From positions 260 through 64,259 of the IMG/VR virus record IMGVR_UViG_3300030104_002782: a stretch of 64,000 nucleotides of DNA; one strand, given 5' to 3'. Positions 1-49,878 of the stretch are shown here, in pieces. Origin of the DNA: a virus (lineage: Duplodnaviria; Caudoviricetes). The position numbers and the translations under genes are program-made. The notes beneath the pieces were generated by a model, which was not told where the DNA came from, made no database searches, and was given only the letters and a program-made list of their open reading frames with translations. Positions within the stretch are counted from its first letter, which is position 1; every line of letters starts with the position of its first letter.

Positions 1-80
1 TGGTTTACCACTTCTATACTTCCATCTAGAAGTCTATGGACTTCTAATTCTGCTTCGCAGTAAGGGCATCTAATTGTCAT
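1..80 (-). CDS. Small CPxC-containing protein, truncated by the window edge
   Basis: Manual translation from ATG at 80 gives MTIRCPYCEAELEVHRLLDGSIEVVN...; preceded by a GGAGATGA RBS; not in the ORF track. Confidence 0.6.
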   Translation of the reverse strand, partial: MTIRCPYCEAELEVHRLLDGSIEVVN

Positions 81-102
81 TCTATCATCTCCTAAACTTC
101 GT

Positions 103-678
103 TTATTTCCTCATAGGTTTTGCATTACTATAATCAGAATCGTAGATTCTAATTACTCTCTTCGAGTATTCTTCATCAGATAAATCTGATGCTTCGATGT
201 TAGAATCCCACTCGCCTTCTGTAAGAAGGCAAGAATCATCGTCACCGATAGCATCGTAAGATGAATACAATTCACCAGCCAGAACCTTTAGGTTCTGTTC
301 ATCCCATTGGTTGAAATCCCATAGGATTTCCTCAAAGTCTACATTAGCAAGGTCAAAGACCTTGTCAAAGTATTCTCCCCAATCTTGGCCGAAGGCCAAG
401 AAGAACCCTAATTCTAGACCTGTAAGGTCTATACCGAACCTTTCAATCCATTCCTCCAAATCTTCGTAGAAGATTTGATACAATTTTACCGGCATCTCGA
501 AGTCATAAATGACTTCGTTAATCTTGGCTATCATATAGCCAATCAATTCTTCTCTATCAGAGCCGAAGGCTCTGACTCTATTCAAGTCCATAGACTTGAA
601 TACCACTTGGTATTCTATATCCCAATCATCTAAAGATGATTGCGATAATTTGTCATACAAATTATTTTCTATTTCCAT
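103..678 (-). CDS. Highly acidic hypothetical protein
   Basis: 191-aa ORF with GGAGAG RBS; about 46 D/E versus about 16 K/R by manual count. Confidence 0.75.
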   Translation of the reverse strand: MEIENNLYDKLSQSSLDDWDIEYQVVFKSMDLNRVRAFGSDREELIGYMIAKINEVIYDFEMPVKLYQIFYEDLEEWIERFGIDLTGLELGFFLAFGQDWGEYFDKVFDLANVDFEEILWDFNQWDEQNLKVLAGELYSSYDAIGDDDSCLLTEGEWDSNIEASDLSDEEYSKRVIRIYDSDYSNAKPMRK

Positions 679-710
679 TTCAATTCTCTCCTAAATCTCC
701 GATTTACTTT

Positions 711-1667
711 TCATTGGTTGAAGAATACATTTTGCTTCGCAAAGTTTCGATGCCATTCAGTAGTTGCTTCGCAAATATCAACTAGACTGTAACTTAAAGA
801 AATCTCGATTTCTTTACCGACATGGTCTTTCAAGGTAAAACCTTGACTAAACTTGTAGACAGAGTCTACAAGAAATGCTCTGCATCCTTGGAAATCTTCG
901 ATTGTAGCCCAATCTTCGTCTTCATCGAAGATGTCTTCTAGATATTTCCATGTTTCATAGAAACATGCTTCAGCATCACCGTCAAACTGTAAGCCGAAGG
1001 CTTGAAGGAAATCTGCTATTACTAAATTGTTCCAATTTAGACCCAATCCTTCTAGGATTGAACGAAGGTCAAGAAGGAAAGCCGAAGGCTTTAGATAGCC
1101 GTAGAAATCTCCGATTTCGTAGTCATATTTTAGAAGGCTAGAGCCTTCTTTGATTCGGTAAGGAAGTATACCAACGGAGTTGGTATGTTCTTTGATTCTC
1201 TCGACTAAGTCGAGTAAATCTTCCGGAGGAAGACACATCTTCTTGACTAGGTCAAGAAGTCTTTGTTCTTCTTTCTTGGCTTCCAAGACTCTGTCTTGTC
1301 CTTCCAGAATATACTCAAAGATGCTGACGAAGTCAGAGTCATCCAATTCTTCAAATCTGTCTTCGACAGCATTCAACCAAAAATCGGAGATTTTTGCGGA
1401 AATATCAACAATTTTTCTACCTTCTCCGAAGGTTATCCTCAAAGCCTTATGAAAGGCTTCGAGAGTTGGATAGAACAAATCAACATCTCCGATGTTGAAT
1501 ACCCTCTTTAGAGGGTAGTTGGGAATGATAAACTCGTTTATCATCTCCTCTTTGCTCTTAGCCAAGAAGTCTAGGACTTCTGGGGTTGGGTCGGTTTCTG
1601 CCTCTCCTTGGAGAGGGGTTTTGCTATGGTTTATACTATCTTTTATCATTAGTTTAACCTCCTTCAC
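711..1667 (-). CDS. Acidic hypothetical protein
   Basis: 318-aa ORF; GGAGGT RBS before the second Met; C-terminal half weakly resembles 103..678. Confidence 0.75.
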   Translation of the reverse strand: MKEVKLMIKDSINHSKTPLQGEAETDPTPEVLDFLAKSKEEMINEFIIPNYPLKRVFNIGDVDLFYPTLEAFHKALRITFGEGRKIVDISAKISDFWLNAVEDRFEELDDSDFVSIFEYILEGQDRVLEAKKEEQRLLDLVKKMCLPPEDLLDLVERIKEHTNSVGILPYRIKEGSSLLKYDYEIGDFYGYLKPSAFLLDLRSILEGLGLNWNNLVIADFLQAFGLQFDGDAEACFYETWKYLEDIFDEDEDWATIEDFQGCRAFLVDSVYKFSQGFTLKDHVGKEIEISLSYSLVDICEATTEWHRNFAKQNVFFNQ

Positions 1668-2370
1668 TTCGTTCAGGAGTTAAACAATGTAAAAGGTAGT
1701 AAACCTAGTATAAATCTACGATTTATACTGCCGGAACCAAATTATGCAATATGGTATACTGATACCATATTGCTTAATTCGCAAAAGATATTTTTTTGCC
1801 GAAAACCGATTGACTCGCAGCGTACACATGGCTCTCTTTCAAAGAGAGGTGGCCTTAATTCTTCCTCAAAACTTCTCCCTTACAGGGAGAAACTTTAGCA
1901 AAAACCAAACATCTTGCGAGGATGTGAAATCTAATCTGCGATTAGATTTTGCTAAAAGAAGAGATAGGATTCCCTAATTCCTATCTCTACTTTAACGCGA
2001 GAAGTTGGTTTTCCATTTAAGTGTAACTAGTTACACTTACTTTGAATGGTCGGCAAATCTTCCTTAATACGGTAATTTATCGGCTTTTAGTGCTGTTTTA
2101 TGTTGTCTTTAGACAACATACTTTCGGACTATGTCAAGATAACTTTTGTATTAGTTTTCTTTCCGGATTTTGGCTCTAGAGCCAACTATCACAAAGAGAA
2201 CATTATTTTCCTAGGAAAATAATTCTGATGGAGAAAAGCCGATTTATTGTGCGAACTAATCTCAAACGAGTTTGAGATTAGTTTCATATAATAAATAGCA
2301 AAAATTGTTAGAGAAAGTTGGCCCTTTATTAACAAAACGGAAAGGACTAGTCCTTTCCGGTCTAACTAAT

Positions 2371-2416
2371 AAAAAAAAAAAAGGGCCACTGACCCCCTTT
2401 AGGGGGTCAGTGGCCC
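2371..2416 (-). terminator. GC-rich hairpin followed by a T12 tract
   Basis: 16-bp stem GGGCCACTGACCCCCT/AGGGGGTCAGTGGCCC adjacent to A12 on the plus strand, just downstream of ORF 2439..2567. Confidence 0.7.
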
Positions 2417-2438
2417 AAAAGATTTGATTCCGAAGGAA

Positions 2439-2567
2439 TCAATATCCTTGTGCTTTAGCACAAGGAGGGCAGAGTCTTTCTGGGACTCCATCGTCTCCGA
2501 AGGAGACGACTACATCTTGGTTGTTCGTTGTTTTTTGGCAATTCCATTGACAGCATTTTTCTGACAT
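2439..2567 (-). CDS. 42-aa Cys-rich microprotein, possible zinc finger
   Basis: Manual translation MSEKCCQWNCQKTTNNQDVVVSFGDDGVPERLCPPCAKAQGY; AT-rich box about 20 nt upstream and terminator downstream. Confidence 0.55.
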   Translation of the reverse strand: MSEKCCQWNCQKTTNNQDVVVSFGDDGVPERLCPPCAKAQGY

Positions 2568-2648
2568 CAAAGGGTACTACGATGGTCTAATACTTAGAGT
2601 TTTGGTGTTTATGCTTCGTTGTTCCGTAGGAACAATGAAGCAAGGGGT

Positions 2649-2990
2649 TTTAGGGCCCCCTAAATCTCCGGATTTCCAGAACCGGACACCCTTATATCTT
2701 CGATATAAGGGTGATTTTCGGCAAACCAAAATAATTCTGTTACCCTATCTTCGATAGGGTAACAGGTAAAGGCTGGGATTTTCGATTTTTAGGGCCCCCT
2801 AAATCTTCTTCTCCTTTAGGAGGAGAAGAAGATTCTCAAGTCTATACCCCTATCTTCGATAGGGGTATAGGTTGAAAATCGGCAACTTTTTTTTTGAACC
2901 CCGTAGGGGTTCAATGAGGAGATTTAGGGCAACCTAAAACTTCAAATCGCAAAAATAATTCTGAGAGTAAACTCTCAGAATTATTTCAAG
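2649..2990. repeat. Three degenerate tandem units of about 137 bp
   Basis: TTTAGGGCCCCCTAAATCT at 2649 and 2788, TTTAGGGCAACCTAAAA at 2923; shared CGGCAA, AAAATAATTCTG and TATC-TTC-GATA hairpins. Confidence 0.75.
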
Positions 2991-3115
2991 CGTAACTAAC
3001 TAGAGGTAATTATACCATCTCCGATGGTATAATTACCGTAAAAAATCCTACAAAAATCCGAGAGTCGGTGAGCCGACTCTCGCCCAGCACCACGAGCAAT
3101 TTTTTAATTTTTTTT

Positions 3116-4618
3116 TCAGAAAAAAGTGACATACTTGCCACTACTCTTTCTAGTGGGCCTACCACCTTTCTGACTAGGCTTACCCCATTTATTCATATCT
3201 ACAGATGAACCCATCATGGGGATGTCTCCGGTTACATTCTTAAATTGGTCTACTGCATGAGCAAGGGCCATGACTATATCATTGTGCTTACCTTTGTCTA
3301 CTATGTCGCCATTTTTCCAAGCATGAGATTCTAATTCTAGCAAAAGTACACTGACTATCTTGCGAGTCTCATCATCTCCGTAAGGGAAAATAATTCTACC
3401 CTGCTCAAACCATGTCCTTAGTCTTGTCATTAGACCTTGCTTCAAAGTCTTATTGCTAACTTTGCTTTGCTTTACATTAACAGTAAGTCCCTTCTGTTTA
3501 AGTAGACTTTCGTAGAGATGTTGAAATCCAGCAGACTCGAATGCAAACAAAGGTTTGCTGTATTTATCATTCCATACTGCTATCTCATCTATCTGTTTAG
3601 CAGGGGGGAAATCGTTTTTTCGCCAGATGTTTACTAATCGCAAATTACCATCTTCGTCTTTTCGCATACAGACCATAACAGAGTAGTCTTGTCCTATACC
3701 GTGACTTGGGTCAAAACCTATGACATAGTCATTGTCATGTACTTTTTTATTTTCAAGTATACTGTGCATATCTAGATTCTTGCGAGTAAGTGTAGTGGGG
3801 AATACAGCAGAGTCATCATCTACTACTTTACAGAGATATTCTTGCGTAAATGCTAATTCGCCTATTGCATCTCTCTGCTCTAACAGAAACTCAATAGGTC
3901 TTTCTTCGGGCCATAGACATGTAGGTTCTACATTATCTGGGTCGCTGCGCCACTCATCATAATTTAAGATTGAACCTTTCACCCAAGTCTGCCACTTCTT
4001 ATTACTTAGCATCTCGGTATGATACAAATCATTCATTGACATAGGAGTGCCTACACAATATATCGAAGTACCGGGGGATAGCATAGGTGTTAGTTTTTTG
4101 CGAAACCATTGTTGAACATAATCATATGACATATCGTTCTGGTCATCTAGTACATCGTCTAATATAATAGCAGCCGGATGTTCTCCACGAATACCGCTAC
4201 CTACAGATGTTGCTTTTATCCATGAGCCATTTGTTAGATGCAATTCTAACTTGTTGCCTTTCTTTGGGTCAAGCATACGAGATAACTCTGGATGAGTTTT
4301 CAAATCTTGACGAATCTCTTCAAGACGATTAGCAGCCAAATCTTTGTTGCTTGAAAATAACCACATCTTTAGAGGCTTACCACGCCATCTTTCAAAAAGT
4401 AACATATGCAAGGCTTTAATTCTAAGAGTAGTAGATTTACTATGGTCTCTTGGTGCTATGATGCAGACTCTATGAACCTGTGCGTCACCTCTTTCACCAT
4501 ATAAGTCTAGCCATTCACCTATATGCTTGCCCCAATTATAACCTAGCCATTCATAGAAATGTCTGACATCATACTTAGACCTCTCAAGATGGAGGGCGGT
4601 CATAATTCTTGACGACAT
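3116..4618 (-). CDS. terL: Terminase large subunit
   Basis: Walker A-like APRDHSKST, Walker B IILDD, GTP coupling motif, RNase H-like IGFDPS and HNDIVMALAHA. Confidence 0.93.
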   Translation of the reverse strand: MSSRIMTALHLERSKYDVRHFYEWLGYNWGKHIGEWLDLYGERGDAQVHRVCIIAPRDHSKSTTLRIKALHMLLFERWRGKPLKMWLFSSNKDLAANRLEEIRQDLKTHPELSRMLDPKKGNKLELHLTNGSWIKATSVGSGIRGEHPAAIILDDVLDDQNDMSYDYVQQWFRKKLTPMLSPGTSIYCVGTPMSMNDLYHTEMLSNKKWQTWVKGSILNYDEWRSDPDNVEPTCLWPEERPIEFLLEQRDAIGELAFTQEYLCKVVDDDSAVFPTTLTRKNLDMHSILENKKVHDNDYVIGFDPSHGIGQDYSVMVCMRKDEDGNLRLVNIWRKNDFPPAKQIDEIAVWNDKYSKPLFAFESAGFQHLYESLLKQKGLTVNVKQSKVSNKTLKQGLMTRLRTWFEQGRIIFPYGDDETRKIVSVLLLELESHAWKNGDIVDKGKHNDIVMALAHAVDQFKNVTGDIPMMGSSVDMNKWGKPSQKGGRPTRKSSGKYVTFF

Positions 4619-4830
4619 TATTCCTCCTCCGTATTAAAGAAAAGTGGGAGACCTACCCACTCCGCTATACCAAGAGCAAGTTGCTCTGCTTCTGACCTAT
4701 CTATTACAATACCTACAATATACTCTTCACTAAAGATATTAAGAGCAATCAAGTTATCCGTCAATTCTGTTAATTGAGCGTCTTTTTCTTTAGAAGTCCA
4801 AATCTTCGCCATCTTCTTCATCTTCTCCAT
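4618..4830 (-). CDS. Small hypothetical protein
   Basis: ORF translationally coupled between the phosphoesterase and terL; true start probably MAKIW. Confidence 0.55.
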   Translation of the reverse strand: MEKMKKMAKIWTSKEKDAQLTELTDNLIALNIFSEEYIVGIVIDRSEAEQLALGIAEWVGLPLFFNTEEE

Positions 4831-6022
4831 TGAGTGCTTTCAGTGTCCTAAGACCATGCCTCAAATCAGAGAATGCTTGAATCTCTCTTGTGTGAGGGGA
4901 GAGGATAACAACAGGGCAAGTTGGTCTTTCACGAGGGAAACCGCACATCTCACCGAAGGTATCTACAATCTTATATGCGCCCGGTCTAACAGCCCAACGC
5001 TCAAGACTATGTTTAGTAAAGGGTGAAACAAGAGGCGTATGGTGATGTCCTACTACTCCTATATCGAAGTCTGCTTCGCCATCATCCCACATCTTCTTGA
5101 CAACACGACTTGGGTCTATCTGCGAATTACCTCTGCGCTTGTGTCTTACAGATATATGGTATGGCTGGTCGCCAATCCATAATCTGATGTTTAATTCGTG
5201 AGCATGGTAAAGTACCGACCTTTCTTCTGCAAGTCTCTTTAGAGGGTCATAGTCTGTCATGCTAGCAGTCCATAAATCGTGATTACCTGCAACAATAGCC
5301 ATAAGGGATGTTGGAGTCATGTCTAAGTAATGCTCACATAGTTTCCATTGAACAGAAGGGGGAATAGGTGCTTTCATAGCAGGTCTTGGTTTGTCTACAA
5401 TGAAGTTATCAATGTAGTCACCTGCATGTATAATAAAACAATTCTCTGTTCTTTCAACCATCTCCGTATCTAGACGAAGTCTTTCGTGGTCGCAGAAAGG
5501 ATTACCTATATGCTGGTCGCTTGCGAATGCTATTGCGATATATTTACCTTTATCAGCATTTACTCTAATATCAGCCCATCTATTATGCTCAACATTCTGA
5601 ATAGCAACTTTAGACTTTTCTTCTATTGCAGCCCATAAGTCGTCACCGCTACCAGCCGCTTTCTTTAGATGCTCTATTACAAAGTGTGGTTTTTCGGTTC
5701 TAGTAATAGCCCCATTCTCATATGCTTGTCTAACACGGTTTCGCCACGCTTCTACACTTATACCATTGTCTCTGCGGTATAACATACGGGCAAGAGACAT
5801 GACAGAGCCATCCCAGACCTTCGGAATAGCACTATTGTACCTCTCTTCTACATCTGGAAACAATTTAGGGTTATTTTCTTTCATTTTAGCAATAAATTGC
5901 GCCCAACCGCTATAAGAATGGTCTGGGTACTCATTTGCTAGCCATCTAGCATAGTGTGTAACTACACCATTGTATTTATCTAAGTTTTCTACGACAATCG
6001 CCTTGCGTTCCTCGGTTCGCAT
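4790..6022 (-). CDS. Calcineurin-like metallophosphoesterase with N-terminal helical domain
   Basis: Motifs SDQH, GDYID, GNHD, RH and GHHH; start placed at MRTEE behind a TTTAATAA box. Confidence 0.85.
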   Translation of the reverse strand: MRTEERKAIVVENLDKYNGVVTHYARWLANEYPDHSYSGWAQFIAKMKENNPKLFPDVEERYNSAIPKVWDGSVMSLARMLYRRDNGISVEAWRNRVRQAYENGAITRTEKPHFVIEHLKKAAGSGDDLWAAIEEKSKVAIQNVEHNRWADIRVNADKGKYIAIAFASDQHIGNPFCDHERLRLDTEMVERTENCFIIHAGDYIDNFIVDKPRPAMKAPIPPSVQWKLCEHYLDMTPTSLMAIVAGNHDLWTASMTDYDPLKRLAEERSVLYHAHELNIRLWIGDQPYHISVRHKRRGNSQIDPSRVVKKMWDDGEADFDIGVVGHHHTPLVSPFTKHSLERWAVRPGAYKIVDTFGEMCGFPRERPTCPVVILSPHTREIQAFSDLRHGLRTLKALNGEDEEDGEDLDF

Positions 6023-6091
6023 ACCAATACTACACACTTTTTACTTATTAAACCCTTCTCTAACTAATTATTTCTATTGTATTGAAAGATT

Positions 6092-6266: not shown

Positions 6267-6448
6267 TTTCTTTCTCAGCCTAGAAATAAATAAAAATACG
6301 GCAACCCACCAAAGTATCTCAAGAAGAAGTAAAAAACCAGCATATTTGGCTAAAACTTCTAACATAATAAGAAATAAGCGTGAATGTTACATAAAAATGC
6401 TTATGGTTTACCCATTCATTGATAAATCATATAGTATGTAAACCCTTC

Positions 6449-7897
6449 ATGGCGCGAAAACCATTACTAGCCCGCATCTTCGGAACGGGCAATAAAAAGG
6501 AAGTTATATTGGATGCTGCGGAGGTAAATACTCTAAATCATAGCGTAACACATAGACACCCTCTAGTGTTAGCGGCTGGCATGTCAGACATTGTAGACGA
6601 ATCTAATAAATTAAGAGACAATAGCAATTACGATAATGATTTTTATCTCTTTGATGATATGCTAAAGTTAGACCCAGAGTTAAACGGTGCGGTTCGTGCC
6701 GTTAGCCTTACGGCTAACAATTATCATATAGATTACACTAGAGCCAAAAACGCTAGGATTAGAGATGCTATTAAACTACTTACAGAAGAAACTTTGGACT
6801 TTGACGATTTTTTAATTAATGGTATGAGAAATATGATGGTCTACGGAAATGACATAAACAAATATGTTGGTACTTCAAGAGAAGGCATTACTGAATTGCA
6901 GTCTCTACCTGTAGCGCAGATAACAATACTAGATTCAAGAGGTCTAAACGATACTACAGACGAAAATAACCCTGTGATTATAGCAGAAAGATATTTCCTA
7001 AGAGAAGGAGAGACTACAGTTGAAGAAATACCAGCAAATGAGATTCTTCACATAAAGACTGACTATAGGTCTAATTGGTTTACAGATAGTGAAGGAAGAG
7101 TTACTTATGGTATATGGGGTTCTTCAAGGTTTACATCACTTAAACAAGCCATTCGTGCTAAATATAATAGCATGAATAACCGTATATCTCTTGAAGATGC
7201 TATGACTAAGCAATACATAACTATTGACAAAAGTGCAATAGCGCACATACAAGACCCAAATGAACAAAGAGAAAGATTGAAGTTTATTATGGAACAGATT
7301 GTTGCCACACTTGAGTCTCTTAGAGGAGACCAAGTACCTATATTCCCAGATTATGTGACTATCCAGCACATAGACCAAAGAACCGCTATACCAGACACAA
7401 CATCTTTCTTAGACAATGTAAATGCTGATATTGCAGCAGTATTACAAGTGCCTAGAACGGCTGCCGGTCAAGAGAAAGGTAGTACCTTTGCTGCATCCTA
7501 TACTGCTAACCAATGGTCTACTACTGCGATTAAAAGAATGCTAAGTATTCTAAATCAATCAATAAGGGCTTTGTTTTCAAAGCATCTTGAGTTATTGAAG
7601 ATAGACCATACAATATCAGACTTGCCTAGGGTTGTCTTTGAACCAATTGACGAAGAATCCCCTCTAGACAAGATGCGTAGAGCAAATATGGGCTACAGTG
7701 CTGGTATTCTAAATCTAAATCAATCTTTAGACATTGTAGGTCTCCCAGAATTAGGAGAAGAAGGAGATGTCAGAAAGGATGGTTCTTCTAGCGAACCTAT
7801 GGGTGAAATGCCTCGTGATGGCGAGAGAGTTAATAATAAACCGACAAATGAGGATGAACCTATAGATGAGGCGGAAAATGATGAACCAAGCGAGTGA
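6449..7897 (+). CDS. Portal protein
   Basis: First gene of the head module, about 480 aa, portal-like segments (MMVYGND, EILHIK, IAAVLQVP), acidic tail. Confidence 0.8.
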   Translation: MARKPLLARIFGTGNKKEVILDAAEVNTLNHSVTHRHPLVLAAGMSDIVDESNKLRDNSNYDNDFYLFDDMLKLDPELNGAVRAVSLTANNYHIDYTRAKNARIRDAIKLLTEETLDFDDFLINGMRNMMVYGNDINKYVGTSREGITELQSLPVAQITILDSRGLNDTTDENNPVIIAERYFLREGETTVEEIPANEILHIKTDYRSNWFTDSEGRVTYGIWGSSRFTSLKQAIRAKYNSMNNRISLEDAMTKQYITIDKSAIAHIQDPNEQRERLKFIMEQIVATLESLRGDQVPIFPDYVTIQHIDQRTAIPDTTSFLDNVNADIAAVLQVPRTAAGQEKGSTFAASYTANQWSTTAIKRMLSILNQSIRALFSKHLELLKIDHTISDLPRVVFEPIDEESPLDKMRRANMGYSAGILNLNQSLDIVGLPELGEEGDVRKDGSSSEPMGEMPRDGERVNNKPTNEDEPIDEAENDEPSE

Positions 7898-20664: not shown

Positions 20665-20936
20665 CCTTTGTTGCGCCTATGCTATGCTCGGCCTACAAAG
20701 GTGTGTTACCAAGCGACTTATTCGACAAATATGATTGTAAAGGCGGTTGGTATAAACTAGAATATGATTTATCAATTGCTGCTGAAATGACCGATAGAAT
20801 TAACGAACAGATGGATGAAAAGAAAGTTGATGGTAAAAAAGCAGTTGCTAATAGAAATAAGAGGAGAGTAGAGAGAGCCGCACTGATAGATTCAAAAGAG
20901 ATGGGAAACATACTAACAGATTGGGCGGATAGTTAA
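20649..20936 (+). CDS. -1 frameshift extension of the tail chaperone (gpGT-like)
   Basis: C CCT TTG at 20649-20655; the -1 frame is open from the heptamer into ORF 20679..20936. Confidence 0.75.
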   Translation, partial: PFGLLTFVAPMLCSAYKGVLPSDLFDKYDCKGGWYKLEYDLSIAAEMTDRINEQMDEKKVDGKKAVANRNKRRVERAALIDSKEMGNILTDWADS

Positions 20937-23900
20937 TGGCAAAAGCAGGTGCGGCACGAGTCTTTTTCGACATTGTAGGGCAACTACAATCGGAGAAACT
21001 TTTGGGTGACACTAAAGCCGCTATGGTTATTCAAGAAGCCATTGTTATTGATACTCTCGGTGGAATAGCAGATGCTTTCGCAGACTCTACTCAGTATATC
21101 CTAGATGGCGTACAACATGTTATTGACGCATTCTTTGAGTATGAGCAACAATTCGTAAGAGTCCGTAAGTTTTACCAAGGAACGGCTACAGAAGCAAGAG
21201 AGTTTGCTGATGCGGCTATGGAAATGGGTCACGCATTCGCATTTACAGGGGCAGAATCTTTAGCGGCTGCTGCTAGAACGGCACAATTAAAGAATGTATT
21301 AGGCGGTCAGTTAGCAGTTATTGAGGCTACAAGAGCAGGTCTTTTGATGGCCCAAGTTGGTGAAATGGAAACCGAGTTAGGTATGAACCGATTTATTGCT
21401 CTTGCTCAACAGACTCAATTTATGTATGGGGGTCTTACTAAAGCAAAGTATGAAAGCCTTACCGCAGAGCAACAGGCTAACCTTGTAAGAGAAACTTCTA
21501 TACATACTCTTAACCAACTTAACACAATTGAAAATACTTCTGTTGCTACAATGGAAGATATTACATTCGTTCTTAACCAATTCGCAAGTCAAGCAAATAT
21601 CGCAGGTGAATCTATTGGTCAAATGGCTGCTATGTCTGCTTTACTACTTGAAACAGGTGAAGAAGTAAGCAGAGCAGGTACAGGTCTGCGTATGATTTAC
21701 CAGAGACTAGGTAATGCTAATAACGAGGCTACAAAAGCAATAGCAGAAATGGTTCCGGGTCTAGATGCTCAAGGCGTAGCGCAGATGAAATTAACTGATG
21801 TTATTAAAGCAATATCCCCCGCATATGATGAAATGGATGCGGCACAGAAAAGAGCATTAGCAGTTAGTATTGCAGGTTCTCGCCACTACATTAAGTTTTT
21901 GAAGATAATGGAAAATCAAGACCGTCTTATACAGATGCAGACGGACTCATTCCACGCTCTTTATCCCGCTATTGAAGAGTTTGAAAATAAAACTGAATCT
22001 TCTGTTTTCAAAGCAACGCAGATGGAGGCAAAGTTAAATGACATGAAAGTTATGCTTGGTGAAAAATTAGCCCCAGCATATATGTCGTCATATAGAGCGC
22101 AAGAGTTTTTCTTAAAGGGAGTAGAGACCTTTTTAGAATTGCCGGGTGCTGAAAAAGCAGTAGGTGGCCTTATAGCAGCATCTAACATATACAAAGAGAC
22201 ACTACAGCCACTTAGCGAATTAGCATTAAGATTTGCAGGTCTTAGTATTGCTATGAAAACATATACTGCTGCTAATCCAAAAGCAATAGCAGCAAGTAAT
22301 AGAATGGCTAAACAATTTCATAGTTTAGCAGATGCTAGATTATCAGAAAGGATGTTAGGAGATGCAAATATAGAATCTCTAAAAAAAGAAACTATAGGCA
22401 TAAATAGAGCGCAACAATCTATACTAGGTAAAACTTCTGCAAGAAAAAGAAGTCTTACTGCTGATAGAGTAGCATTAAATGTAAAAAGAAGGGCGAATAA
22501 AGCACAAGCAGATACTATTATTAAAAACATAATGGAGGCTGAGTCGGGCGGTAAAGCAGGTAAAGCATTAAAGCAACTTCATTGGCAGAAAGGTAAATTA
22601 GTAAAAACAAATGATAGACTTGCTACTCAACAAGGAAGGCTTCTTGGACTTCAAAAATTAGCAAGAACAGACCATGACTTTGAATTAAAAATTAGCGGTA
22701 TGATTTCTGCACAAAAAAAGGGTAGAGAAATTATTGATAAGCGTACTCTTCTAACTATGTATCAGAATGTTCAAGCACAAGAAGTTATGAATGCAGGTCT
22801 AACAAATCATGCTACTTTGATGTCTAATGAAATTGTATTAACGGCAGAGTTAGATAAACATATGGTAAAACAATTAGAGCATAGGTCTATGGAAATACTT
22901 GTTCTACAAGAAGATGCTAGGGCTAGAATGGCTGCTCTAAATGCAGAAAGAGCAGAGTTATTATCAAAAGATTTATCTACAGTAGCCATAGATGAAAAAA
23001 TAGCGGCAGAAAGAGAAGAAATAATGACTCTCGGTCAAAAAAGGGCTGCGATACAAGGTACAATAATGGCAAATAATCAATATATTGCTAGTAGCAAAGC
23101 CGCAGCAGGTGGCGTAAAAGGACTTACTGCTAATCTAAAATTAGGTGCTACTGCTTTCTTTGAACAAGGTAAAGCCGTACAAGCAGCAAAAGGAGGAATA
23201 ATGGCTATGACAATGCTACTCCCTATGATAGTAGACCAAGAAGAACAAATGGCGGCTATGACTTACAGTGCTGGTATTATGATGGTTGGTATGTTGGTTC
23301 CAGCAATTATGAGTGTTAATGCAGGTCTTATAGAAATGGGGGTAGCCGCAGGTTTCGCAAGCGGAGGACTTACTGTTTTAATAGGCGGTCTTGCAGCATT
23401 AGCAGTATACGCAGGTTTCGAGATATTTTCAGAAACTATTGGAGGAGATATTGAAAGCCAAATTGGTTTAGTTGATGAATTAAATACTAGCCTAGATACT
23501 ACTGCTTCAATACTTGCTGAATTACAAGGGCCATCTGGCGAAGGTGCTATTTTACCGGGCCTTATTGATATATCCTATAATGACTTAAAACAAAATGCAG
23601 ATTTAACTACTCAGACTTATGCAGATGTGCAAAGTAGAATCGCTGGAATGCGAGAGAATGAGGAAAGGGCTATACAGATGGGTAATGATGAGTTGGCTAG
23701 TATGTATGCTACTCAAATAAGTGAAATGGAGGTTATAGAGTCTAAAATTAAAAGTATTGGTGATGCTCAAGCATTAGTTAATGGTACTATGGCAGATTTT
23801 AATTCCGAAGCAAAACACGCTTTTACTATCCAAGAAAAAATGTCTACTCATGGAGATGAAGTAATTGCTTTTAAGGTAGGATTTGATTTTGACGGTGATG

Positions 23901-24403
23901 GAAAAATAGACAAAGGAGAATTATACAAAGAGTTCGATAGAAACGATTTTTATACAGAGGAACATAATTGGCCCGATTTTGAAACTAGAGTGGGTATGGC
24001 AAGAAACGCGGCTTATGAGTATTATTTAGAAGAAAGGGAAAACTTAACAATTGATTATAATAACGACGACCATCAATTTATGGTAGATTATTATACAACT
24101 TTACTAGATGTGCAAGATACATCTAATAATGCTATGATAAATGCAGATAAGCAAATGTATGATGCTCTAAATCAACAGACAGAAGAGTTTGCGAATGCTA
24201 GAGAAGAGTTATTCTTTGGAGAAAGAGCAAACTTCACAGGACAGATATTCAAAAACATTACGCAAGGCGGAGTAGAAAGTATTCTGCATAGAGTAGAGTT
24301 TATTCAAACTAATAACTTTAATGGAATGGTTCTTGATGAAATGGTAGAGCAAGTTAGTACAGGCGTAGTGCAAGAGTTGAGAAGTTTAGGTGTACCAATA
24401 TGA
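20936..24403 (+). CDS. Tape measure protein
   Basis: 1155 aa, Ala-rich and helical, with a TP901-like core (SRAGTGLRMI) and hydrophobic segments. Confidence 0.9.
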   Translation: MAKAGAARVFFDIVGQLQSEKLLGDTKAAMVIQEAIVIDTLGGIADAFADSTQYILDGVQHVIDAFFEYEQQFVRVRKFYQGTATEAREFADAAMEMGHAFAFTGAESLAAAARTAQLKNVLGGQLAVIEATRAGLLMAQVGEMETELGMNRFIALAQQTQFMYGGLTKAKYESLTAEQQANLVRETSIHTLNQLNTIENTSVATMEDITFVLNQFASQANIAGESIGQMAAMSALLLETGEEVSRAGTGLRMIYQRLGNANNEATKAIAEMVPGLDAQGVAQMKLTDVIKAISPAYDEMDAAQKRALAVSIAGSRHYIKFLKIMENQDRLIQMQTDSFHALYPAIEEFENKTESSVFKATQMEAKLNDMKVMLGEKLAPAYMSSYRAQEFFLKGVETFLELPGAEKAVGGLIAASNIYKETLQPLSELALRFAGLSIAMKTYTAANPKAIAASNRMAKQFHSLADARLSERMLGDANIESLKKETIGINRAQQSILGKTSARKRSLTADRVALNVKRRANKAQADTIIKNIMEAESGGKAGKALKQLHWQKGKLVKTNDRLATQQGRLLGLQKLARTDHDFELKISGMISAQKKGREIIDKRTLLTMYQNVQAQEVMNAGLTNHATLMSNEIVLTAELDKHMVKQLEHRSMEILVLQEDARARMAALNAERAELLSKDLSTVAIDEKIAAEREEIMTLGQKRAAIQGTIMANNQYIASSKAAAGGVKGLTANLKLGATAFFEQGKAVQAAKGGIMAMTMLLPMIVDQEEQMAAMTYSAGIMMVGMLVPAIMSVNAGLIEMGVAAGFASGGLTVLIGGLAALAVYAGFEIFSETIGGDIESQIGLVDELNTSLDTTASILAELQGPSGEGAILPGLIDISYNDLKQNADLTTQTYADVQSRIAGMRENEERAIQMGNDELASMYATQISEMEVIESKIKSIGDAQALVNGTMADFNSEAKHAFTIQEKMSTHGDEVIAFKVGFDFDGDGKIDKGELYKEFDRNDFYTEEHNWPDFETRVGMARNAAYEYYLEERENLTIDYNNDDHQFMVDYYTTLLDVQDTSNNAMINADKQMYDALNQQTEEFANAREELFFGERANFTGQIFKNITQGGVESILHRVEFIQTNNFNGMVLDEMVEQVSTGVVQELRSLGVPI

Positions 24404-27400
24404 CAAAGACAGTTACAACAAAGTACAATTTTTGGTTAGCAGGTTACTATGACAACTTTGCTTCTGCTAGATGCGTAGCAGACGACCTTAATGACGCTAA
24501 CGCAAGAACACTAGACCACACTAAAACACATTTTGGTTCTGCTTTAGGTGGAAACGCAAGACTTAATTCTAGATTTAGATATTCCTATCCCGATAGAGTA
24601 AGAACAGGTACTTATTTTTTAGACGCACCTAATGGTACGGGTTGGGCGTATCTAGGTTCTAATGAAGCATTTAGCAGTATTACGGCAGTTACAGATGCTC
24701 TTACACATAATTCTTCTTTTGCTGATTGGCTAAAATATGACATGTATAGAGATAATGTAGATAGTAATACTATTTCGCAATCCAAACCTAAACATCCCTC
24801 TTCTATTCTTGCGAATAGACAAAGATTTGCAGGTGCGGCTGGTGATTCTTACCTAGCATTTTTTAACGGTCACGAAACTGCTGGAAAATACTATTGCCCT
24901 GTAGGAGATATGGATTTTAGTTGGGCTGCTGCGCCCCTTACACAAGGGAATAAAGAAAGAACAGGTGGGACTTATGATGATAATGCTGGCAATCCTGTTC
25001 CTTTTATGCAATACGGTCATACATCTAGTCTATACCCTTCTCATGTACCTGCTTCTGCAAATACTTATGCTTTAGTATCTTTTGCTAGCGTATATGCAAG
25101 CGAAGAACCAAAAATTACTACTGCAACTGAATATGCAGAAACATATTCACATATAATTACAAGTCCCTCTAAAAATAACTTTTTTATTCATAATCTATAC
25201 ATTCCCGCAGAGGCAGGTTCTAGTGGCACACAAAGAATAATGACATATGACGGCCCTCTTAGAATAAAAGGTCTTGGAGAAAGTTTTCATTTGCGAATTG
25301 CAGTAGACAATCCAATTCAAACTTTTTCCGGAAATTACATAGATTTTGCTTATTCTCTAAAGATAGGTTACAAATCTAGTGCTACTTACAATAAATCTAC
25401 AAACGCTTTTAGTGATACTGCTAGTATAGCAACAGTACCTATAACTTTAGCAGATATGGGATTACAAACAGCAGATATAGCAAAATACAAAGAAGGAGTG
25501 CCAGACGCACTACCTTTGGATATGATGTGGGCTGATATAGAAGTTGTTTTTGACTTTAGTGCTAATACTTGGAAAGCATACGCAAATGGAAATACTAGTC
25601 ATTTCGCAACCGGCTCTGTAGACACATCTGTAGAAGAATTAACTGCTATTGGCTGGTCTTTAGATACAACTTGGGCGCGTGGCACTAGTACCTTCGGAAC
25701 ACTAGTTACTATGATTGATAGAGCCGCTATTGCTTTGCCACTTACAAATAAGTTTGATGGTACAATTCCCGCCCCTGTAGAAAAGTTTTCTTTAAGTAGA
25801 GGTACTAACAGAATAAGTACCTGTAGTGTTACAATAGCAGATGATGATAATTCTTATAATCTATTAGCACTAACTACAGGTGTGGCTACAAGCGAATGGA
25901 AATTACTATGCTTTTTAGATAATGAGGATAGACCTTTTTGGCAAGGAGTAGTAAACAGCATTACTCATAAACAAAATAATAAAAATCAAACTCTAAGTAC
26001 AACCATAAAAGCAGAAGATTCTCTAAGTATTTTAGATAGAACACTTCCTATCTGGGAACACGGTCAAAACTCCTACATTACTTTAAGTAATCATATATCT
26101 ATGGCTAGCACAGTAGATAAAAGAATAGAAGAAACTACTGCTATATCTAATACTTTGTTAATGGGTAGTGCTACTTTAAGTTACAAAGGTAGCGAATTAG
26201 GTTTTAGCAAATATGATACAGATAAATACTCTGGCGGCTTTAGTCCTATAACAGATAGTAGAACACAACTTCATTCCGGTACTCCTATTCAGATGTATAT
26301 TAACGAAGATAGTGACGGCCCTAACGATGTTGAAAACGAATGGGAGGGAGATGATGTTTTAGAAATAGTAAGTCACCATCCATTTAACAGTGTTGATAGA
26401 GAGTTTTGGGTAAAGTTTGATGAAAGGATTTATACTTCTACCCCTACATCTCAAACACATATTGATACTTACGGTAATTTTAGTGATGGTGATACTTTTG
26501 TTGTAAAAGGTACTGCTTATGATGGTACATATACAATAAATCAAATGTATACGCAAAAAGATTTAACTACTGCCGAAGATACATGGTTTGTTAGGATAAG
26601 AACAACAGACACATCGGGAAATGTAGCAACAGATAGATTGTTTACTGCTACAGATGTAGTATCGTTAAATGCAGATTATGACGGTAAAAGACTTATTAAA
26701 ATTACAGCATCTTCGGCACATAATCTTTTAGAAGGAGACGAGTTTATGTTCCCTGTAGGATTAACTCTTTCGGGTTCCTCTTCTAACATGGAACATTTTG
26801 CTGCTAGACCATTACAAGTTTTCCATGTAGAGTCTGCTACTGTTCTTCATGTTTTAGTAGAAAGATGGCCTTATGCAGTTGGAGATAGTAAAACTATATC
26901 AAGTAATACAGGTATGGCTTATGACCTAAGCAAAATAAATGGTAAAGACTCTAAGTCTTATCCTAAGACATCTCCCGTACTTTACAAATCAAATACAATT
27001 ACCAATCAGATACCACAAGATGTTACCAAATACAGAAATATACATGCTAGATGGATGAGGGATTTGCCGCAATCTACTTGGTTCAAAGCACAGTTTGGTG
27101 TAATCGCAGCAGAACCTTATTGGAGACATGGTATAGGCTCATTCCTTCACACACCATTTACTGCTGCTCAAGCAGCACTAATGACAGGTGCAGGTGGCAC
27201 AGATTGGAACGCTGATGGTACTACCAAAGTACCTACTATGGAGGGTGATTTAACAACATCCTCTACAACACTTACTTTAAGAGATGCTGCTTTATGGTGG
27301 TACATAAAACACAATAGGCTAAAGGAGTTTATTATAGACTTAGTAGATAAAGACACAGGAGACCATCAGTATATCATAGGTAACAATGTTACCACTCCAA

Positions 27401-30400
27401 CAAACTATGATACTATGTCGTGGCACACTAGCGGATATTTCTATACAGGAGGAGGCGCACATGGTTTTGTCGAAGGGCAGATAATTGTTCATAGAGGATT
27501 TACTCAAGAACACTTAAATGGGCCAATGATGATAAAAGAAGTAGTTGCTTCAAATCAATACACCACTTATAGGATAGAGCAATTTAATGCAAATGACTCC
27601 TCATTTGCATATCTAAAAGCAAAATACAGAGGAGAAAGTAATTGGTCTGACGGTAATAGTAGATGGTATGCAGACCCAGATAACATTACTGCTACTTTAG
27701 TACAACCTTCGTCTGGTGCTGATTATGCGCCCGATGCAGACTCCGGAGGGGTATATCACGGTACTGTAAATCTTACAGGTCTTAAAGGAGTTAAAAGAGA
27801 TTGGAATAGAGCAAACACTATCTATAGTCTTAGAAAAGTAGATGAAAGTAATGGCTACAAACATCTATGGGCTTTATGGGCTGATATGAGAAATGATGGT
27901 ACTGCTGATGCAGACGGTGGTTATCGCAAATCTGATTTTAATTTGCTTTTACCTACATCCCAGAAGTATTCAGTTAATCTTACTTTTGCTAATCAATTTG
28001 ACGAATATGGTTTACCAGATACTTTTTGCGATTTGAAAGTAGGAGAAGATTTAGATATATGGTCTCTTGATGCTACAGAAGAACCATTTACGGGTACTGC
28101 TTGGGAGGCTCTTGAAGGTGGTTCAAACGAAGAACCATTCGACCAATATCATAATTGGAAAGATAAGGGAGGCGCAGTATGTCTAGTGGATGTGTCCCGT
28201 TTTTGGAATCTAAATACTGCTGCTTGTGGTGGCAGACCCGGCTACAATAGCGGTGGTTTAGCAGACTTTGGAGATTACGAAACCAATTCTACAGGTTTCC
28301 CTTATCTTATTGATAATTATTGGAAACATGCAGTAGCAAATCGCAAAAATATAACAGAAGATACTCACTTTGTAAAATATCATAAAAACGCTGATTATTT
28401 CATAAATGACGGTACTCACTTAATGAGAGATATTGCAGTAACAGATACCGTCATTTATTTAGACGATGCAAGTCAATTCGCAAGTAGTGGCTATGGAGTA
28501 ATACAATGCACAGGAGGAGGGTCAGACCGTGACTCTGAAAAGACTAATTATTATTTTTATTGGTCTGGTAAAACTACTGTTCTAATAGATAATCAACCAT
28601 ATGATAAATTAACAGGAGTATATATTACTACCTATGAAGTAGTAACCGGCCCTAAAAATGTAATAGACCAATTAAAAGTAGACCAAGCAGCAAGCGCAAC
28701 AGGTAGCGAAGTTGCTATTGGTAGTAATGAGTTTAGAACAACAGATGTAGAAGGTAATTTTGATACTGTAAGAGTATACAATACTCCCGCAGCATTGTTT
28801 AGTTTTAGATTATTAATGAATATATCTGGTAAAATTAAATCTCTTAACTCTGGCACATACTTTGCACACGATAAACTTAGGTATATGCAGACATTACTTC
28901 TAACAGATAGTTGGGCTACCAATGCAACACTTCCTTGTATCTGGGATATACAGAATGTGCCTAAGACTAGTGATTTAGGAGGGGAAGATTACGGTTCTGT
29001 TCACGATGCTAGAGGGCAGACTATTATGACTTTGCTAAATGATATGAAAACCAAAGAAGGAAATGGTAGTGGTGGAGGACTAAAGACCTTTTCTTGGATG
29101 ATAGGTAGAGATAATAGATTAGACTTTAGAGAAAGTTATGCTAGCGGTCATACATTTAATAGAAATAATCTAAAGGTCTCTGATTTAAGCACAACAGCAG
29201 GTACTCAGATAACAAATGTAAGAGTATACTATAATGGAAACTCTGCGTTTGCAGACCACCCAGAACCTTCTGGTTCAGATGTCAGATGGAGAGTATTAAA
29301 TTATCCAAACATTTTTAACAGAGAAGAAGCCTTGTCTTTAGCAAAACAAGAATACCTTAGAGAAAAGGACTCTAGAGTAAGCATAAGTGCAGAAATAATT
29401 AGGCCATCGGGAGATACAAATGTAATGACAGATGGTGGCAGGTACGGATATGTTGCAGATGTATGTAGAAACTTAACTAGAAAGTACACACAATCTTTGG
29501 GTTGGTGGACTAATACTTTAGGCGGCTCTCCGTTCTTTGGTATTCAAAATGCTTTGGATTGTGGCTCACTTAATTCGGAGGCTAACATAACTACTTCGTC
29601 TTTGTTATACGCAAGCACATACTCTAATGCAGTAGGTTATGATTCAGACCACGCAGCAGACCATAGATGGAGACTAGGCATAGTATCTACAAATAGTGCT
29701 GGTGCAGCACCTACTAGCCCACCTGCAAGTGGTAAAATATACAGGGTATCTACAGGGCCAGATGTATACAAGTGGGCTTACGATGGTAGCAGTTATGGTT
29801 CTAATGTTACATTTAGCAATACTAATACTTGGTACGAATTAGAGTCTACAGTTAGTGGAGTTACATACAAATTATCAGTATACAATATAAACACCTCTCA
29901 TGCCTCTGCTACACAAGAAGTAACTATGTATTATGACAGAGCAACTAGAAGGCATGGTAACGCTTACTATTGGTACGGAACAAACTCTTTATCCCCCGCT
30001 ATACAAGTAGTACATGTAGATAAAGATACTAACAAAGTTAGTGCTACTTCAAGTAATGAATTAAGACTTGCGATTGCATATCACGCTGGTAGTACGGCTC
30101 AGACTGCTACCTTCAAATTATTTGCTTTAGATTATGCCTTTGATGAAGGAATAGGTGCTGGCCCTGTACCACCATTATTTACTGCTGCTACTTTAGAAGG
30201 TTCTTCTTCTGTAGTGATTGATGGTAACGGTATGTTTGAATTAACACTACCTTCATCTTATGATAGTAGTACACCAAAGGTAATCTTTTCAGCAGATATA
30301 GATTATTTGCGAGATGTTATGGATAGAAGATTGTATCAGACTACTCCTAAAAATGCACATAATATGCCATTAGATAGTACATACTCATCCTTTGATACAG

Positions 30401-31594: not shown

Positions 31595-32302
31595 TTAAGG
31601 TTTCCACTCTTTGCGAAGGCTTTTGATTCTTCTAGCAAGAACCCTACCCACTCCTTTGATTTTCATTAAGTCTTTCAGTCTGACCTTAGTCTTTAGCAAA
31701 TTAGGTATGGATTTGTATTGGTCTAGCAATCTTTCTGCTATATCTTGACTTACTCCTTGTATTCCCATAAGAGCAAGCATCCTTGGGTCGGTAGGTAGAC
31801 TCTTGATTCTAGTAGCGGGTTTTAGCGTAGAACCCATCTGCTTCTTTAGATGCGATACCGCTAACCACTCTACAAAATCATCCATACTAGGAAACTCAAT
31901 AACTCGTATTTTTGGGAAATGTGAGTATACTACCATCTTAAATGATTTAATAACTCTATTCATTTTTGCGATTTCCCTAGAAATCTCGTTTGCCTTGGCC
32001 TTTCTACCTTTGAAATAAGGTTTTAGTTGAGTCCCATAGATAGCAAGAAAAGGCATTTCGCAAGACTCACTCAATTCGTGTAATTGATGATTGATTGTTC
32101 TACCATTCCTACCTATCCCTAGAATAGTGCGATACAAGTCGTTTATCTCTTTTGCTTCAATAGCCCAATCACCAATGATATAATCACCATACTGTAGCCT
32201 CTTAACCATTACTTCGCCTTTCGGGTCTACCTTTCTATTGCCACAGGCTACATACAGTTTGTGAAGAAGTTTTTCATTCTCCCTATCATCTGCATATATC
32301 AT
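31595..32302 (-). CDS. XPF/ERCC4-family structure-specific endonuclease with HhH motifs
   Basis: DDRE, GDYII, IEAK..DL, then two HhH motifs (IQGVS, IKGVG). Confidence 0.88.
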   Translation of the reverse strand: MIYADDRENEKLLHKLYVACGNRKVDPKGEVMVKRLQYGDYIIGDWAIEAKEINDLYRTILGIGRNGRTINHQLHELSESCEMPFLAIYGTQLKPYFKGRKAKANEISREIAKMNRVIKSFKMVVYSHFPKIRVIEFPSMDDFVEWLAVSHLKKQMGSTLKPATRIKSLPTDPRMLALMGIQGVSQDIAERLLDQYKSIPNLLKTKVRLKDLMKIKGVGRVLARRIKSLRKEWKP

Positions 32303-32343
32303 ATGGTATGCTGGTACTATGTGGTATAAAACCACATCCCTTA

Positions 32344-33340: not shown

Positions 33341-33505
33341 TCACCTATACATGGTGTCCTTATCAATCTGTTTATGACCGCATATAGAACAGGTATAATA
33401 CTTTCGATTAGCAGTATCAATGTGTCCCGTTACTAGCATCACAGGCTTAGAGTCTGCTTCTTCTGTTGATATTATAGCATCGCATTCTTCACAAAACATT
33501 GTCAT
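33341..33505 (-). CDS. Zinc-ribbon microprotein
   Basis: Manual translation MTMFCEECDA...RKYYTCSICGHKQ...; overlaps the stop of the upstream gene. Confidence 0.6.
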   Translation of the reverse strand: MTMFCEECDAIISTEEADSKPVMLVTGHIDTANRKYYTCSICGHKQIDKDTMYR

Positions 33506-45567: not shown

Positions 45568-45646
45568 TCTTCACATATAGGCTCGTCGGTGTGCCATTTC
45601 ATATCTTCCATCTCACACCATTCCCCGCACTCTGAACATTCCATTA

Positions 45647-49637: not shown

Positions 49638-49659
49638 GTTATCACCAATCCCTCTACGA

Positions 49660-49670: not shown

Positions 49671-49696
49671 CAATGTTTCTAAGCCGTAGAAATAAT

Positions 49697-49869: not shown

Positions 49870-49878
49870 TATTCTTTT

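Follow-up and report, generated by a model that had tools for sequence, protein, structure and literature searches.

A lineage-specific field of short perfect hairpins behind the terminase gene of a marine tailed virus

Why should the DNA behind the terminase gene of a tailed virus be packed with small palindromes of unrelated sequence? The locus lies in a 64,000-nt window, bases 260-64259 of the 64,259-bp virus record IMGVR_UViG_3300030104_002782 (Duplodnaviria; Caudoviricetes), where an earlier note, written from the letters alone, had described DNA hairpins at 1707-3080. We found that the window carries a field of hairpins specific to one lineage, made up of some 100 short, perfect palindromes (stems 7-16 bp, loops 0-4 nt) and probably maintained by selection. 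Base pairing within the strand is conserved, not sequence, and any stem sequence serves.

Our scan (perfect stem of at least 7 bp and loop of 0-6 nt, unless another threshold is named) found 172 hairpins in the whole window. Kilobases one to three contain 20, 18 and 19 of them and the fourth contains 3; most of the remaining window has 0-4 per kb, and the density climbs again from about 57 kb to reach 18 in the last kilobase. The last 130 nt of the record repeat its first 130 nt with one mismatch. Once circularised, the dense domain consists of window positions 61500-64000, 129 nt outside the window and positions 1-3110, 5740 nt in all. The parts of the field and the genes around it are as follows.

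1-3110: left part of the field, with its sharp boundary at the terminase stop codon; coding and non-coding DNA alike have about 19 perfect hairpins per kb.
61500-64000: right part of the field, joined to window position 1 via the end overlap; 7 per kb (61-62 kb) rising to 18 per kb (63-64 kb).
63871-64000: end overlap, the circular-or-permuted junction; holds a long tract of alternating purines and pyrimidines, which measures 48 nt in the copy that opens the record.
45000-61499: shoulder; 2-7 hairpins per kb in conserved leftward genes, falling to a background of about 0.5-1 per kb.
3116-4618, minus strand: large terminase (phrog_38 at 1.6e-45, Terminase_6C).
64 kb down to 31.6 kb, minus strand: leftward gene block, presumed early and then replication genes.

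The domain held 97 hairpins, compared with 2.2 +/- 1.6 (maximum 6) in 20 dinucleotide shuffles, so the earlier expectation of a density above shuffled background held. Stems of at least 10 bp numbered 28 in the domain and 0 in the shuffles. The other 51.5 kb showed an approximately three-fold enrichment (75 vs 23.2), chiefly at 45-61 kb. When folded as single-stranded DNA (ssDNA), the segment 2380-3110 reached -188 kcal/mol (z = -22.5) and the open reading frame (ORF) at 103-678 reached -99.7 (z = -12.9), and the adjacent terminase gene gave z = -1.1. In the 4240-nt core, 94 hairpins with stems of at least 6 bp cover 43% of the bases with a median unpaired linker of 19 nt, and a complete hairpin is present in 48% of 36-nt windows of the core vs 4-5% elsewhere. 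The field has a sharp edge at the 3' end and stop codon of the terminase gene, decays over about 20 kb of the leftward block, and covers a 1.4-kb non-coding control region together with the fast-evolving first genes of that block.

The hairpins listed in the earlier note were all recovered at their places. These are the loops GAA at 2424 and 2491, TTC at 2687 and 2737, GTA at 2894, TAC at 1707, TGC at 1927 and TCC at 3005, the CTAG centres at 2018, 2170, 2202 and 2338, the CT-TT-AG centres at 2099, 2383 and 2445, and the two-base loops at 2254 (GA) and 2953 (AA). We counted 26 perfect hairpins in 1707-3082, 23 of them with stems of at least 8 bp. The extent had been underestimated: two ORFs within 1-1700 hold 32 hairpins, so that coding DNA matches the non-coding part in density, and 61500-64000 belongs to the field as well.

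The field is independent of coding. The ORFs 103-678 and 711-1667 are as hairpin-dense as the non-coding 1668-3115, and every codon phase is used. We shuffled synonymous codons within each ORF 200 times with protein and codon usage fixed. Seven ORFs of the domain and shoulder gave the following counts.

103-678, minus strand: ORF of 191 aa, acidic, no known family; 15 hairpins, shuffle mean 1.06.
711-1667, minus strand: acidic 318-aa ORF without a known family; 17 hairpins, which use every codon phase, shuffle mean 1.18.
61916-62467: ORF; 5 hairpins, shuffle mean 0.58.
60561-61919, minus strand: AAA_5 ATPase (phrog_249); 7 hairpins, one over the Walker A codons, shuffle mean 0.92.
59614-60564: ORF; 4 hairpins, shuffle mean 0.34.
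57777-58583: ORF; 3 hairpins, shuffle mean 0.30.
57258-57752: ORF; 4 hairpins, shuffle mean 0.28.

In each of these ORFs, the observed count was reached by 0 or 1 of the 200 shuffles. Among eleven other ORFs (distal replication, terminase, nuclease, portal and structural genes), nine were at the shuffle background, including the terminase gene with 0 hairpins vs 0.47; the ORF 47527-48837 (4 vs 0.69, 3/200) and the portal gene (2 vs 0.38, 12/200) were marginal. The codons for the AAA_5 Walker A motif carry a stem of at least 7 bp in 5 of 7 hairpin-bearing loci, the window included, where three lineages form three different hairpins by codon choice. In 7 hairpin-less loci, no stem over these codons exceeds 5 bp.

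The 318-aa ORF has homologues (30-44% aa identity) only in hairpin-bearing relatives, as found by tblastn of the fetched loci; a direct scan of viral contigs found none. It is absent from one hairpin-bearing lineage (the L009 group) and is therefore not required for the field. The ORF matched no Pfam or PHROG family, gave only E > 0.3 in a PDB sequence search and had no usable Atlas neighbour, and its single-sequence AlphaFold model had a pLDDT of 35.6. Its product is 44% identical to the counterpart in the close relative L007, although the L007 terminase is 98% identical. The hairpin domain is also hypervariable: segments have been replaced or deleted, and L007, for instance, lacks window positions 131-430.

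We fetched fifty related terminase loci and placed 39 of them, together with the window, on a tree; 32 of the tree loci had sufficient downstream DNA to be classified and 8 did not. The field follows the terminase gene directly in 18 of the 32 classifiable loci and is lacking in 14, from various metagenomes. The check suggested earlier, to look in related viral genomes for the same domain with different stems, thus came out positive. The 14 field-less loci form one clade (support 99/99) plus one distant outlier, and the 18 field-bearing loci form four lineages in an unresolved polytomy. The trait is clade-specific; the terminase tree needs 2 state changes. Whole-genome counts were 180, 155 and 155 hairpins in three bearers vs 21, 24 and 33 in three hairpin-less genomes with the same gene order. 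All three complete bearers show the sharp edge at the terminase 3' end, a decay over about 20-25 kb of the leftward block, and structural genes at background.

Pairing is conserved where sequence is not. Of 106 hairpins compared with the closest relative (terminase 98% identical), 38 are identical and 41 have changed without ceasing to be hairpins; 5 are broken, and the other 22 fall in deleted or unalignable segments. The 77 gap-free hairpins comprise 690 pairs, with 623 unchanged, 30 changed on both sides with pairing kept, 1 changed on both sides with pairing lost and 36 changed on one side. In an alignment of 1900-3120, entire inner stems have been rebuilt in new sequence amid conserved unpaired motifs. 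A seven-row alignment had 15 pairs changed on both sides vs 7.2 in shuffles (reached in 0 of 500), and 72% of its cells were paired vs 41-48% with slid partners; these pair counts are underestimates, as one-base register shifts in the 83% relatives inflate the unpaired cells. Two relatives differ at 26 places in about 7 kb, and 12 of these fall in the inner stem of one hairpin, swapped on both arms. In a contig from an independent run, substitutions at 2967/2968 are matched by others at 2971/2972, and an insertion at 2846 by one at 2861. Between more divergent genomes, the hairpins change position and the density stays. These compensatory changes, with the unrelated stems, agree with the earlier proposal that selection acts on pairing and not on a sequence consensus.

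The anatomy of the hairpins is narrow. Stem lengths in the domain peak at 8 bp (n=34), followed by 7 (n=26), 10 (n=11) and 9 (n=9) and ranging up to 16, and 15 stems of 6 bp were seen where about 11 are expected. Loops are of 3 nt (n=42), 2 nt (n=28), 4 nt (n=13) or 0 nt (n=9). In 512 distinct hairpins pooled from nine relatives, the closing pair is 5'-C..G-3' in 220, T..A in 211, A..T in 45 and G..C in 36. The 30 C..G-closed triloops of the domain include 13 GNA and 8 TNC on the plus strand. The fixed loop vocabulary claimed earlier survives as a statistical preference (21 of these 30 triloops) and fails as a conserved motif. Loops also change fastest: differences per site from the closest relative are 0.39 in loops, 0.22 in stems and 0.25 outside. 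The non-coding part also contains two sets of elements with shared motifs.

2687-2713, 2737-2765, 2842-2870 and 3005-3037: four hairpins with unlike stems and a common ATC-TNC-GAT at the loop; the inner stem of 2842-2870 is exchanged on both arms between near-identical relatives.
2648-2941: three copies of TTTTAGGGCCCCCTAAATCT, a 20-nt palindromic repeat (family D1), at spacings of 139 and 135 nt and interspersed with hairpins.

For a field with this excess, conserved pairing, independence from coding, sharp edge with gradient and clade specificity, the explanation we tentatively favour is selection for intrastrand pairing of the DNA itself in the early or first-exposed region, dense enough to leave little of a strand unpaired and with a predicted shielding role. 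Pairing would matter while the region is single-stranded, be it during genome entry, during end resection in recombination-dependent replication, or behind early transcription. Each strand would then fold into compact mini-hairpins with tight loops, C-GNA-G among them, with C..G or T..A closing pairs and without wobble. Such hairpins might resist nucleases, single-strand-binding factors or guide-based host factors, and this resistance would protect the section of the genome that is first to be exposed and first to be required. The arms would be kept perfect by concerted, probably self-templated, correction; since the arms change in concert, such correction is likely to help maintain them.

A more specific version, which we consider doubtful, is that the field is a passive anti-defence device in DNA, with nearly all 30-40-nt segments of the early region made self-complementary, so that the region would be a poor substrate or guide source for single-strand-acting host systems. 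Its targets would be end-resecting nucleases, sensors dependent on SSB or RPA, and Argonaute or CRISPR guides with their targets, and self-templated correction would let stems vary in sequence while staying paired. Two papers touch on the cost or benefit of such structures: type III-A spacer capture prefers DNA hairpins as substrates (PMC8860593), and DdmABC is triggered by viral palindromes (PMC11707656). Given these two systems, dense palindromes could be a liability.

Several further points weigh against selection for shielding at the DNA level. Loops evolve fastest, and GNA or TNC loops are found in only 21 of the 97 hairpins. Beyond small or unknown ORFs and a CcrM-like methylase, no hairpin-specific protein is exclusive to the hairpin-bearing genomes; the exclusive genes are two unknown domain ORFs, this methylase and a few small ORFs. 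The single-stranded state of the field DNA is one that we infer, and all hairpins lie in a block presumably transcribed leftwards, which leaves room for a role in RNA. The contig ends of related records are scattered and show no fixed terminus at the field. A contig of the close relative L007 crosses the junction of the record ends without a break, the end repeat of another relative, 105 nt long, sits elsewhere on the map, and six related complete records have their ends at six different map positions (by arithmetic from terminase coordinates). Judged from these comparisons of assembled contigs, the record has arbitrary ends and its map is either circular or circularly permuted, because a relative reads through the junction and the ends of related records differ in map position. 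The same two observations argue against a fixed genome terminus with a long direct terminal repeat containing the field, and the structured leading end suggested in the earlier note is not upheld. The decoy for host nucleases that the note also proposed may still be a role of the field.

The structure could instead serve at the RNA level, where early transcripts of the leftward block would be protected from single-strand-specific ribonucleases of host or virus or from guide-RNA pairing and the gradient would reflect the distance from early promoters. We regard this as unlikely. The field does lie wholly within the co-oriented leftward block and begins right behind two terminator-like elements past the terminase gene, the density gradient follows the direction of transcription, and stems of 7-16 bp would be very stable as RNA. 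The terminator-like elements of the domain are given below; a fourth lies within the 129 nt between the window's ends.

3059-3082, minus strand: terminator-like hairpin and T-run directly behind the terminase gene; kept with a compensatory change in the 83% relatives.
2370-2416, minus strand: strongest intrinsic-terminator-like element, a 16-bp G+C-rich stem followed by T13; stem rebuilt with other sequence in relatives.
63400-63431, minus strand: terminator-like hairpin, 15-bp stem followed by T7.

The terminator at 2383-2416 and the next ORF start, at 1667, enclose 700 nt with about 11 hairpins, and a large part of this stretch is probably not transcribed in the leftward direction; the terminase and nuclease genes on the same strand are without hairpins. 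The field shows no tolerance of G:U pairs: only 8 of 112 stems extend beyond a mismatch, one such mismatch is G:T with no G:T preference, and G:T-tolerant stem extension gave no signal. Loops are mostly of 2-3 nt, and classical stable RNA tetraloops are rare, with C(TTCG)G in 1 of the 97 domain hairpins and 4 of the 512 pooled ones. When the core was folded as RNA, the sense strand had no advantage (-100.4 vs -102.3 kcal/mol per 300 nt for the antisense strand, p = 0.29), unlike a control coding region where the sense strand was stabler (-72.0 vs -63.2). The absence of wobble, the tiny loops, the enrichment of C-GNA-G, the rarity of RNA tetraloops and the lack of a sense-strand folding advantage argue for pairing at the DNA level. 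The earlier statements that G-U pairs are rare, that DNA-type C-GNA-G loops are enriched with loops in both orientations, and that an RNA fold is not what is selected are in line with these results.

Quite unlikely, in our judgement, is a mutational by-product, in which a peculiarity of replication or repair in the clade would cause frequent intrastrand template switching that perfects quasi-palindromes, so that functionless hairpins accumulate wherever protein constraint permits. This would account for arms that change together, block swaps and symmetric insertions included, for perfect stems with sharp ends and no wobble, for positions that turn over at larger divergence under constant density, and for a clade-specific trait with fewer hairpins in conserved genes. 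It would not lead one to expect a stem mode of 8 bp with few stems at 6, which is the pattern of a stability threshold under selection, nor loop and closing-pair preferences that favour stable hairpins, nor a sharp edge at the terminase stop codon. Moreover, about 17-20 hairpins per kb are held across lineages with terminases 30% apart, the hairpin-laden ORFs remain open and conserved as proteins, and no clade-specific polymerase or repair gene was found. Because of the 8-bp mode, the stable closing pairs and loops, and the density kept across 30%-divergent terminases, we prefer selection on hairpin stability to pure mutational drift.

We also considered hairpin-type initiation signals on ssDNA, either promoters of the N4 kind, which an RNA polymerase would read by their structure, or G4/ssi-type priming signals, and find them improbable. 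Promoter hairpins of an N4-type system would be expected upstream of early operons, with a stem of 5-7 bp and a purine-centred 3-nt loop on the template strand. A C-GNA-G triloop on a 7-8-bp stem is the promoter architecture of coliphage N4, which has three such promoters. Its early promoters resemble the field in their short stems, 3-nt C-GNA-G loops on the template strand, position in the early region, and dependence on structure over stem sequence, and our scan recovered C(TCC)G and C(TTC)G coding-strand hairpins at 90, 557 and 4546 of the N4 early region. The gene-sense strand of the pooled relatives has C(TNC)G 46 times and C(GNA)G 20 times, which places GNA on the template strand, and background pentamers outside hairpins have the opposite bias. 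This bias is weak, and the preference differs from lineage to lineage (it is the opposite in L009 and L044), which also counts against the shielding explanation. The first 12 kb of N4 contain 23 hairpins (1.9 per kb) and a handful of promoters, whereas the field has 97 hairpins in 5.7 kb (17 per kb), 20-60 nt apart, in both orientations and in many cases within ORFs; the C(GNA)G or C(TNC)G loops among them likewise occur in both orientations and within ORFs. Sigma-70-like promoters were not enriched (4 vs 7.4 and 4 vs 6.2 expected). The hairpin-promoter system proposed in the earlier note is not supported.

No RNA polymerase family was found in 49 distinct ORFs searched against Pfam, PHROGs and NCBIfam, with most large ORFs searched in one or two of these libraries and a very divergent enzyme still possible. 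One candidate for a virion RNA polymerase was rejected.

24400-31491, plus strand: conserved ORF of 2363 aa after the tape measure gene.

This ORF had no Pfam, PHROG or PDB sequence match (E <= 1) and no DxDxD motif. A model of residues 850-1750 (pLDDT 65) gave no Foldseek match at E <= 0.001 and only weak matches to tail-tip and baseplate folds. Its length is kept (about 2300-2450 aa) in 32 relatives, with a strongly conserved block at about residues 1150-1300, and the homologues are without names or domains.

The hairpin-less relatives have a non-coding gap of similar size behind the terminase gene, with 10-15 same-orientation copies of a motif of about 22 nt (core ..AAACGATAGACTGCGAGCC..). 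In L031, L033 and L043 (G003-G005), the copies lie about 1.5-3.0 kb after the terminase start, and isolated copies follow beyond that. The motif may act as a promoter or an iteron, and copies in the same gap could be sequence-type signals in place of hairpin-type ones, as the initiation hypothesis would allow.

Double-stranded non-B DNA, namely cruciforms under negative supercoiling together with Z-DNA tracts in a supercoil-responsive origin, packaging or regulatory region, is in our view very unlikely. The hairpin centres are pyrimidine-purine steps with minimal spacers, a periodic repeat array adjoins the terminase gene, and the domain holds alternating tracts of 48, 32 and 21 nt that are conserved in hairpin-bearing relatives.

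63126-63205: two tracts (32 and 21 nt) of alternating purines and pyrimidines, made up of motifs of the partly palindromic TGTACGCA / CGCACATG family.

The domain has 9 of the genome's 15 alternating tracts of at least 12 nt. Most stems are of 7-10 bp, generally short for extrusion at physiological superhelicity, and hairpins within ORFs and a 20-kb gradient fit an origin or pac site poorly. Z-prone tracts, shorter ones, also occur in two of the three hairpin-less genomes. The Z-DNA-prone tracts, up to 48 nt, are located at 63126-63157, 63185-63205 and 63930-63977 and in the 129 nt before window position 1. An assembly or amplification artefact, which the earlier note had named as a refutation, is extremely improbable: a contig from an independent study matches 1081-3084 without substitutions and with one inserted A in the A-run at 2370, and the 18 field-bearing loci come from many metagenomes, with different stems in the same place.

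We compared the field with other known systems. The first-step-transfer region of phage T5 is likewise early-entering, rich in repeats and inverted repeats, and occupied by host-takeover genes (record annotation), but its first 14 kb have 29 hairpins (2.1 per kb) and it has a fixed terminal repeat, compared with 17 per kb and scattered record ends here. In integron attC sites, priming sites of the ssi/G4 type and ssDNA promoters of plasmid leading regions, the hairpin and not the sequence functions, its action depends on the DNA being single-stranded, and several of these signals lie in first-entering DNA. They come singly or in small numbers, their hairpins are longer and imperfect, with defined bulges, and each works with a dedicated enzyme (integrase, primase or RNA polymerase). 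The field, in contrast, consists of about 100 perfect mini-hairpins overlapping coding sequence, with no partner enzyme identified. An integron attC array, which would have an integrase gene and imperfect hairpins with conserved R/L boxes and extrahelical bases, was rejected, as no integrase family was present among the ORFs searched and the stems are perfect.

Intrinsic terminators are matched by about 4 hairpins with a G+C-rich stem and a T-run on the minus strand; the other approximately 93 are without a T-run (other rows of the scan are weak-tailed), and many are within ORFs. REP/BIME, MITEs and Rickettsia palindromic elements are sequence families spread by copying, the last of them inserted in frame within genes. 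The field shares their density of short palindromes and differs in that its stems are unrelated. A mobile palindromic repeat family was rejected on the same ground, because a direct-repeat search gave only families of 2-5 short copies. The Mimivirus 'hairpin rule' uses unrelated palindromes as a structure-only signal for mRNA 3' ends, about one per gene, at gene ends and in RNA, while the field has tens per gene, unrelated to gene ends. In a full-text literature search that covered neither subscription journals nor supplements, no tailed virus was described as having a hairpin-dense domain. We likewise found no described system that matches a field on the kilobase scale which extends through coding sequence, influences codon choice, has a polar gradient and differs between sister clades.

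If selection on intrastrand pairing does extend over kilobases and through genes, it would amount to a second, structural layer of information atop the genetic code, with enough force to influence which codons are used, even those of a Walker A motif, and to accelerate the evolution of proteins. The gene order shared by field-bearing and field-less sister clades would provide a natural experiment on which exposure of ssDNA (or RNA) a virus has to avert early in infection, and the field would allow the concerted evolution of palindrome arms to be studied. It would also offer compact DNA hairpin designs with predicted nuclease resistance. Many related contigs end shortly past the terminase gene, within the first kilobases of the field, and for this reason the field affects annotation and assembly of marine viromes.

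The gene content is that of a siphovirus-like tailed virus. The remaining landmarks of the map are the following.

4790-6037, minus strand: Mre11/SbcD-like phosphoesterase, adjoining the terminase gene.
6419-7897, plus strand: portal.
20936-24403, plus strand: tape measure.

The families of the leftward block are an AAA_5 ATPase, DUF7192, an HNH endonuclease, an RFC-like clamp loader, an N6/N4 methylase, a family B polymerase, a PD-(D/E)XK nuclease and an ERCC4-HhH nuclease. Several structure- or end-processing nucleases are thus encoded, at 4790-6037(-), 31595-32335(-), 33502-34443(-) and 54156-54698(-); they comprise the Mre11/SbcD-like phosphoesterase, a Hef/XPF-like ERCC4-HhH nuclease, a PD-(D/E)XK exonuclease and an HNH endonuclease. 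Such nucleases are also present in three hairpin-less genomes, except that the HNH endonuclease has no match in G003. The best NCBIfam matches are archaeal-type (Hef nuclease/archaeal Xpf, RFC small subunit, archaeal PolB), which is a hint at the archaeal label given earlier and no more, as all are below curated cut-offs. Genome-contig scans of 185,579 species genomes with terminase and PolB found no relatives and no host. Terminases of the closest cultured phages are at most 27% identical. The sequencing runs in which it was found belong to 14 studies of marine or seawater metagenomes. Rfam at gathering thresholds gave 0 matches in the whole window, and ARAGORN gave 0 tRNA and 0 tmRNA genes.

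Some minor repeats were also noted in the domain. An exact 16-nt direct repeat, GCTTGATTTTCTTAGT, occurs at 62783-62798 and 63840-63855, intergenic in both cases, and three 21-nt repeats headed by GATTATAATC occur at 62513-62580; both are possible regulatory sites. Counts of GCGAG revealed a local cluster of a CATGTGCGAG-type motif with no link to the hairpins.

The CcrM-like N6/N4 DNA methylase (37276-38073, minus strand) has counterparts of 97% and 71% identity in the other two genomes that bear hairpins. Of the three hairpin-less genomes, two lack it and one has a version of only 33% identity. Its likely site, GANTC, was not clearly enriched in the hairpin domain. Several palindromic tetranucleotides are missing from this genome and five relatives (G001-G005). 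GATC occurs 0 times where about 170-220 are expected, AGCT 0 times where 105-205 are expected, and ACGT 0 times in five of the six genomes and once in the sixth, with 77-97 expected. These gaps point to a probably intense restriction pressure, with host enzyme sets that would differ by lineage. CTAG and GTAC are absent or nearly so in four of the genomes (0; GTAC 1 in G002) and normal in this genome and its closest relative, and CGCG occurs 0-1 times in the three hairpin-less genomes.

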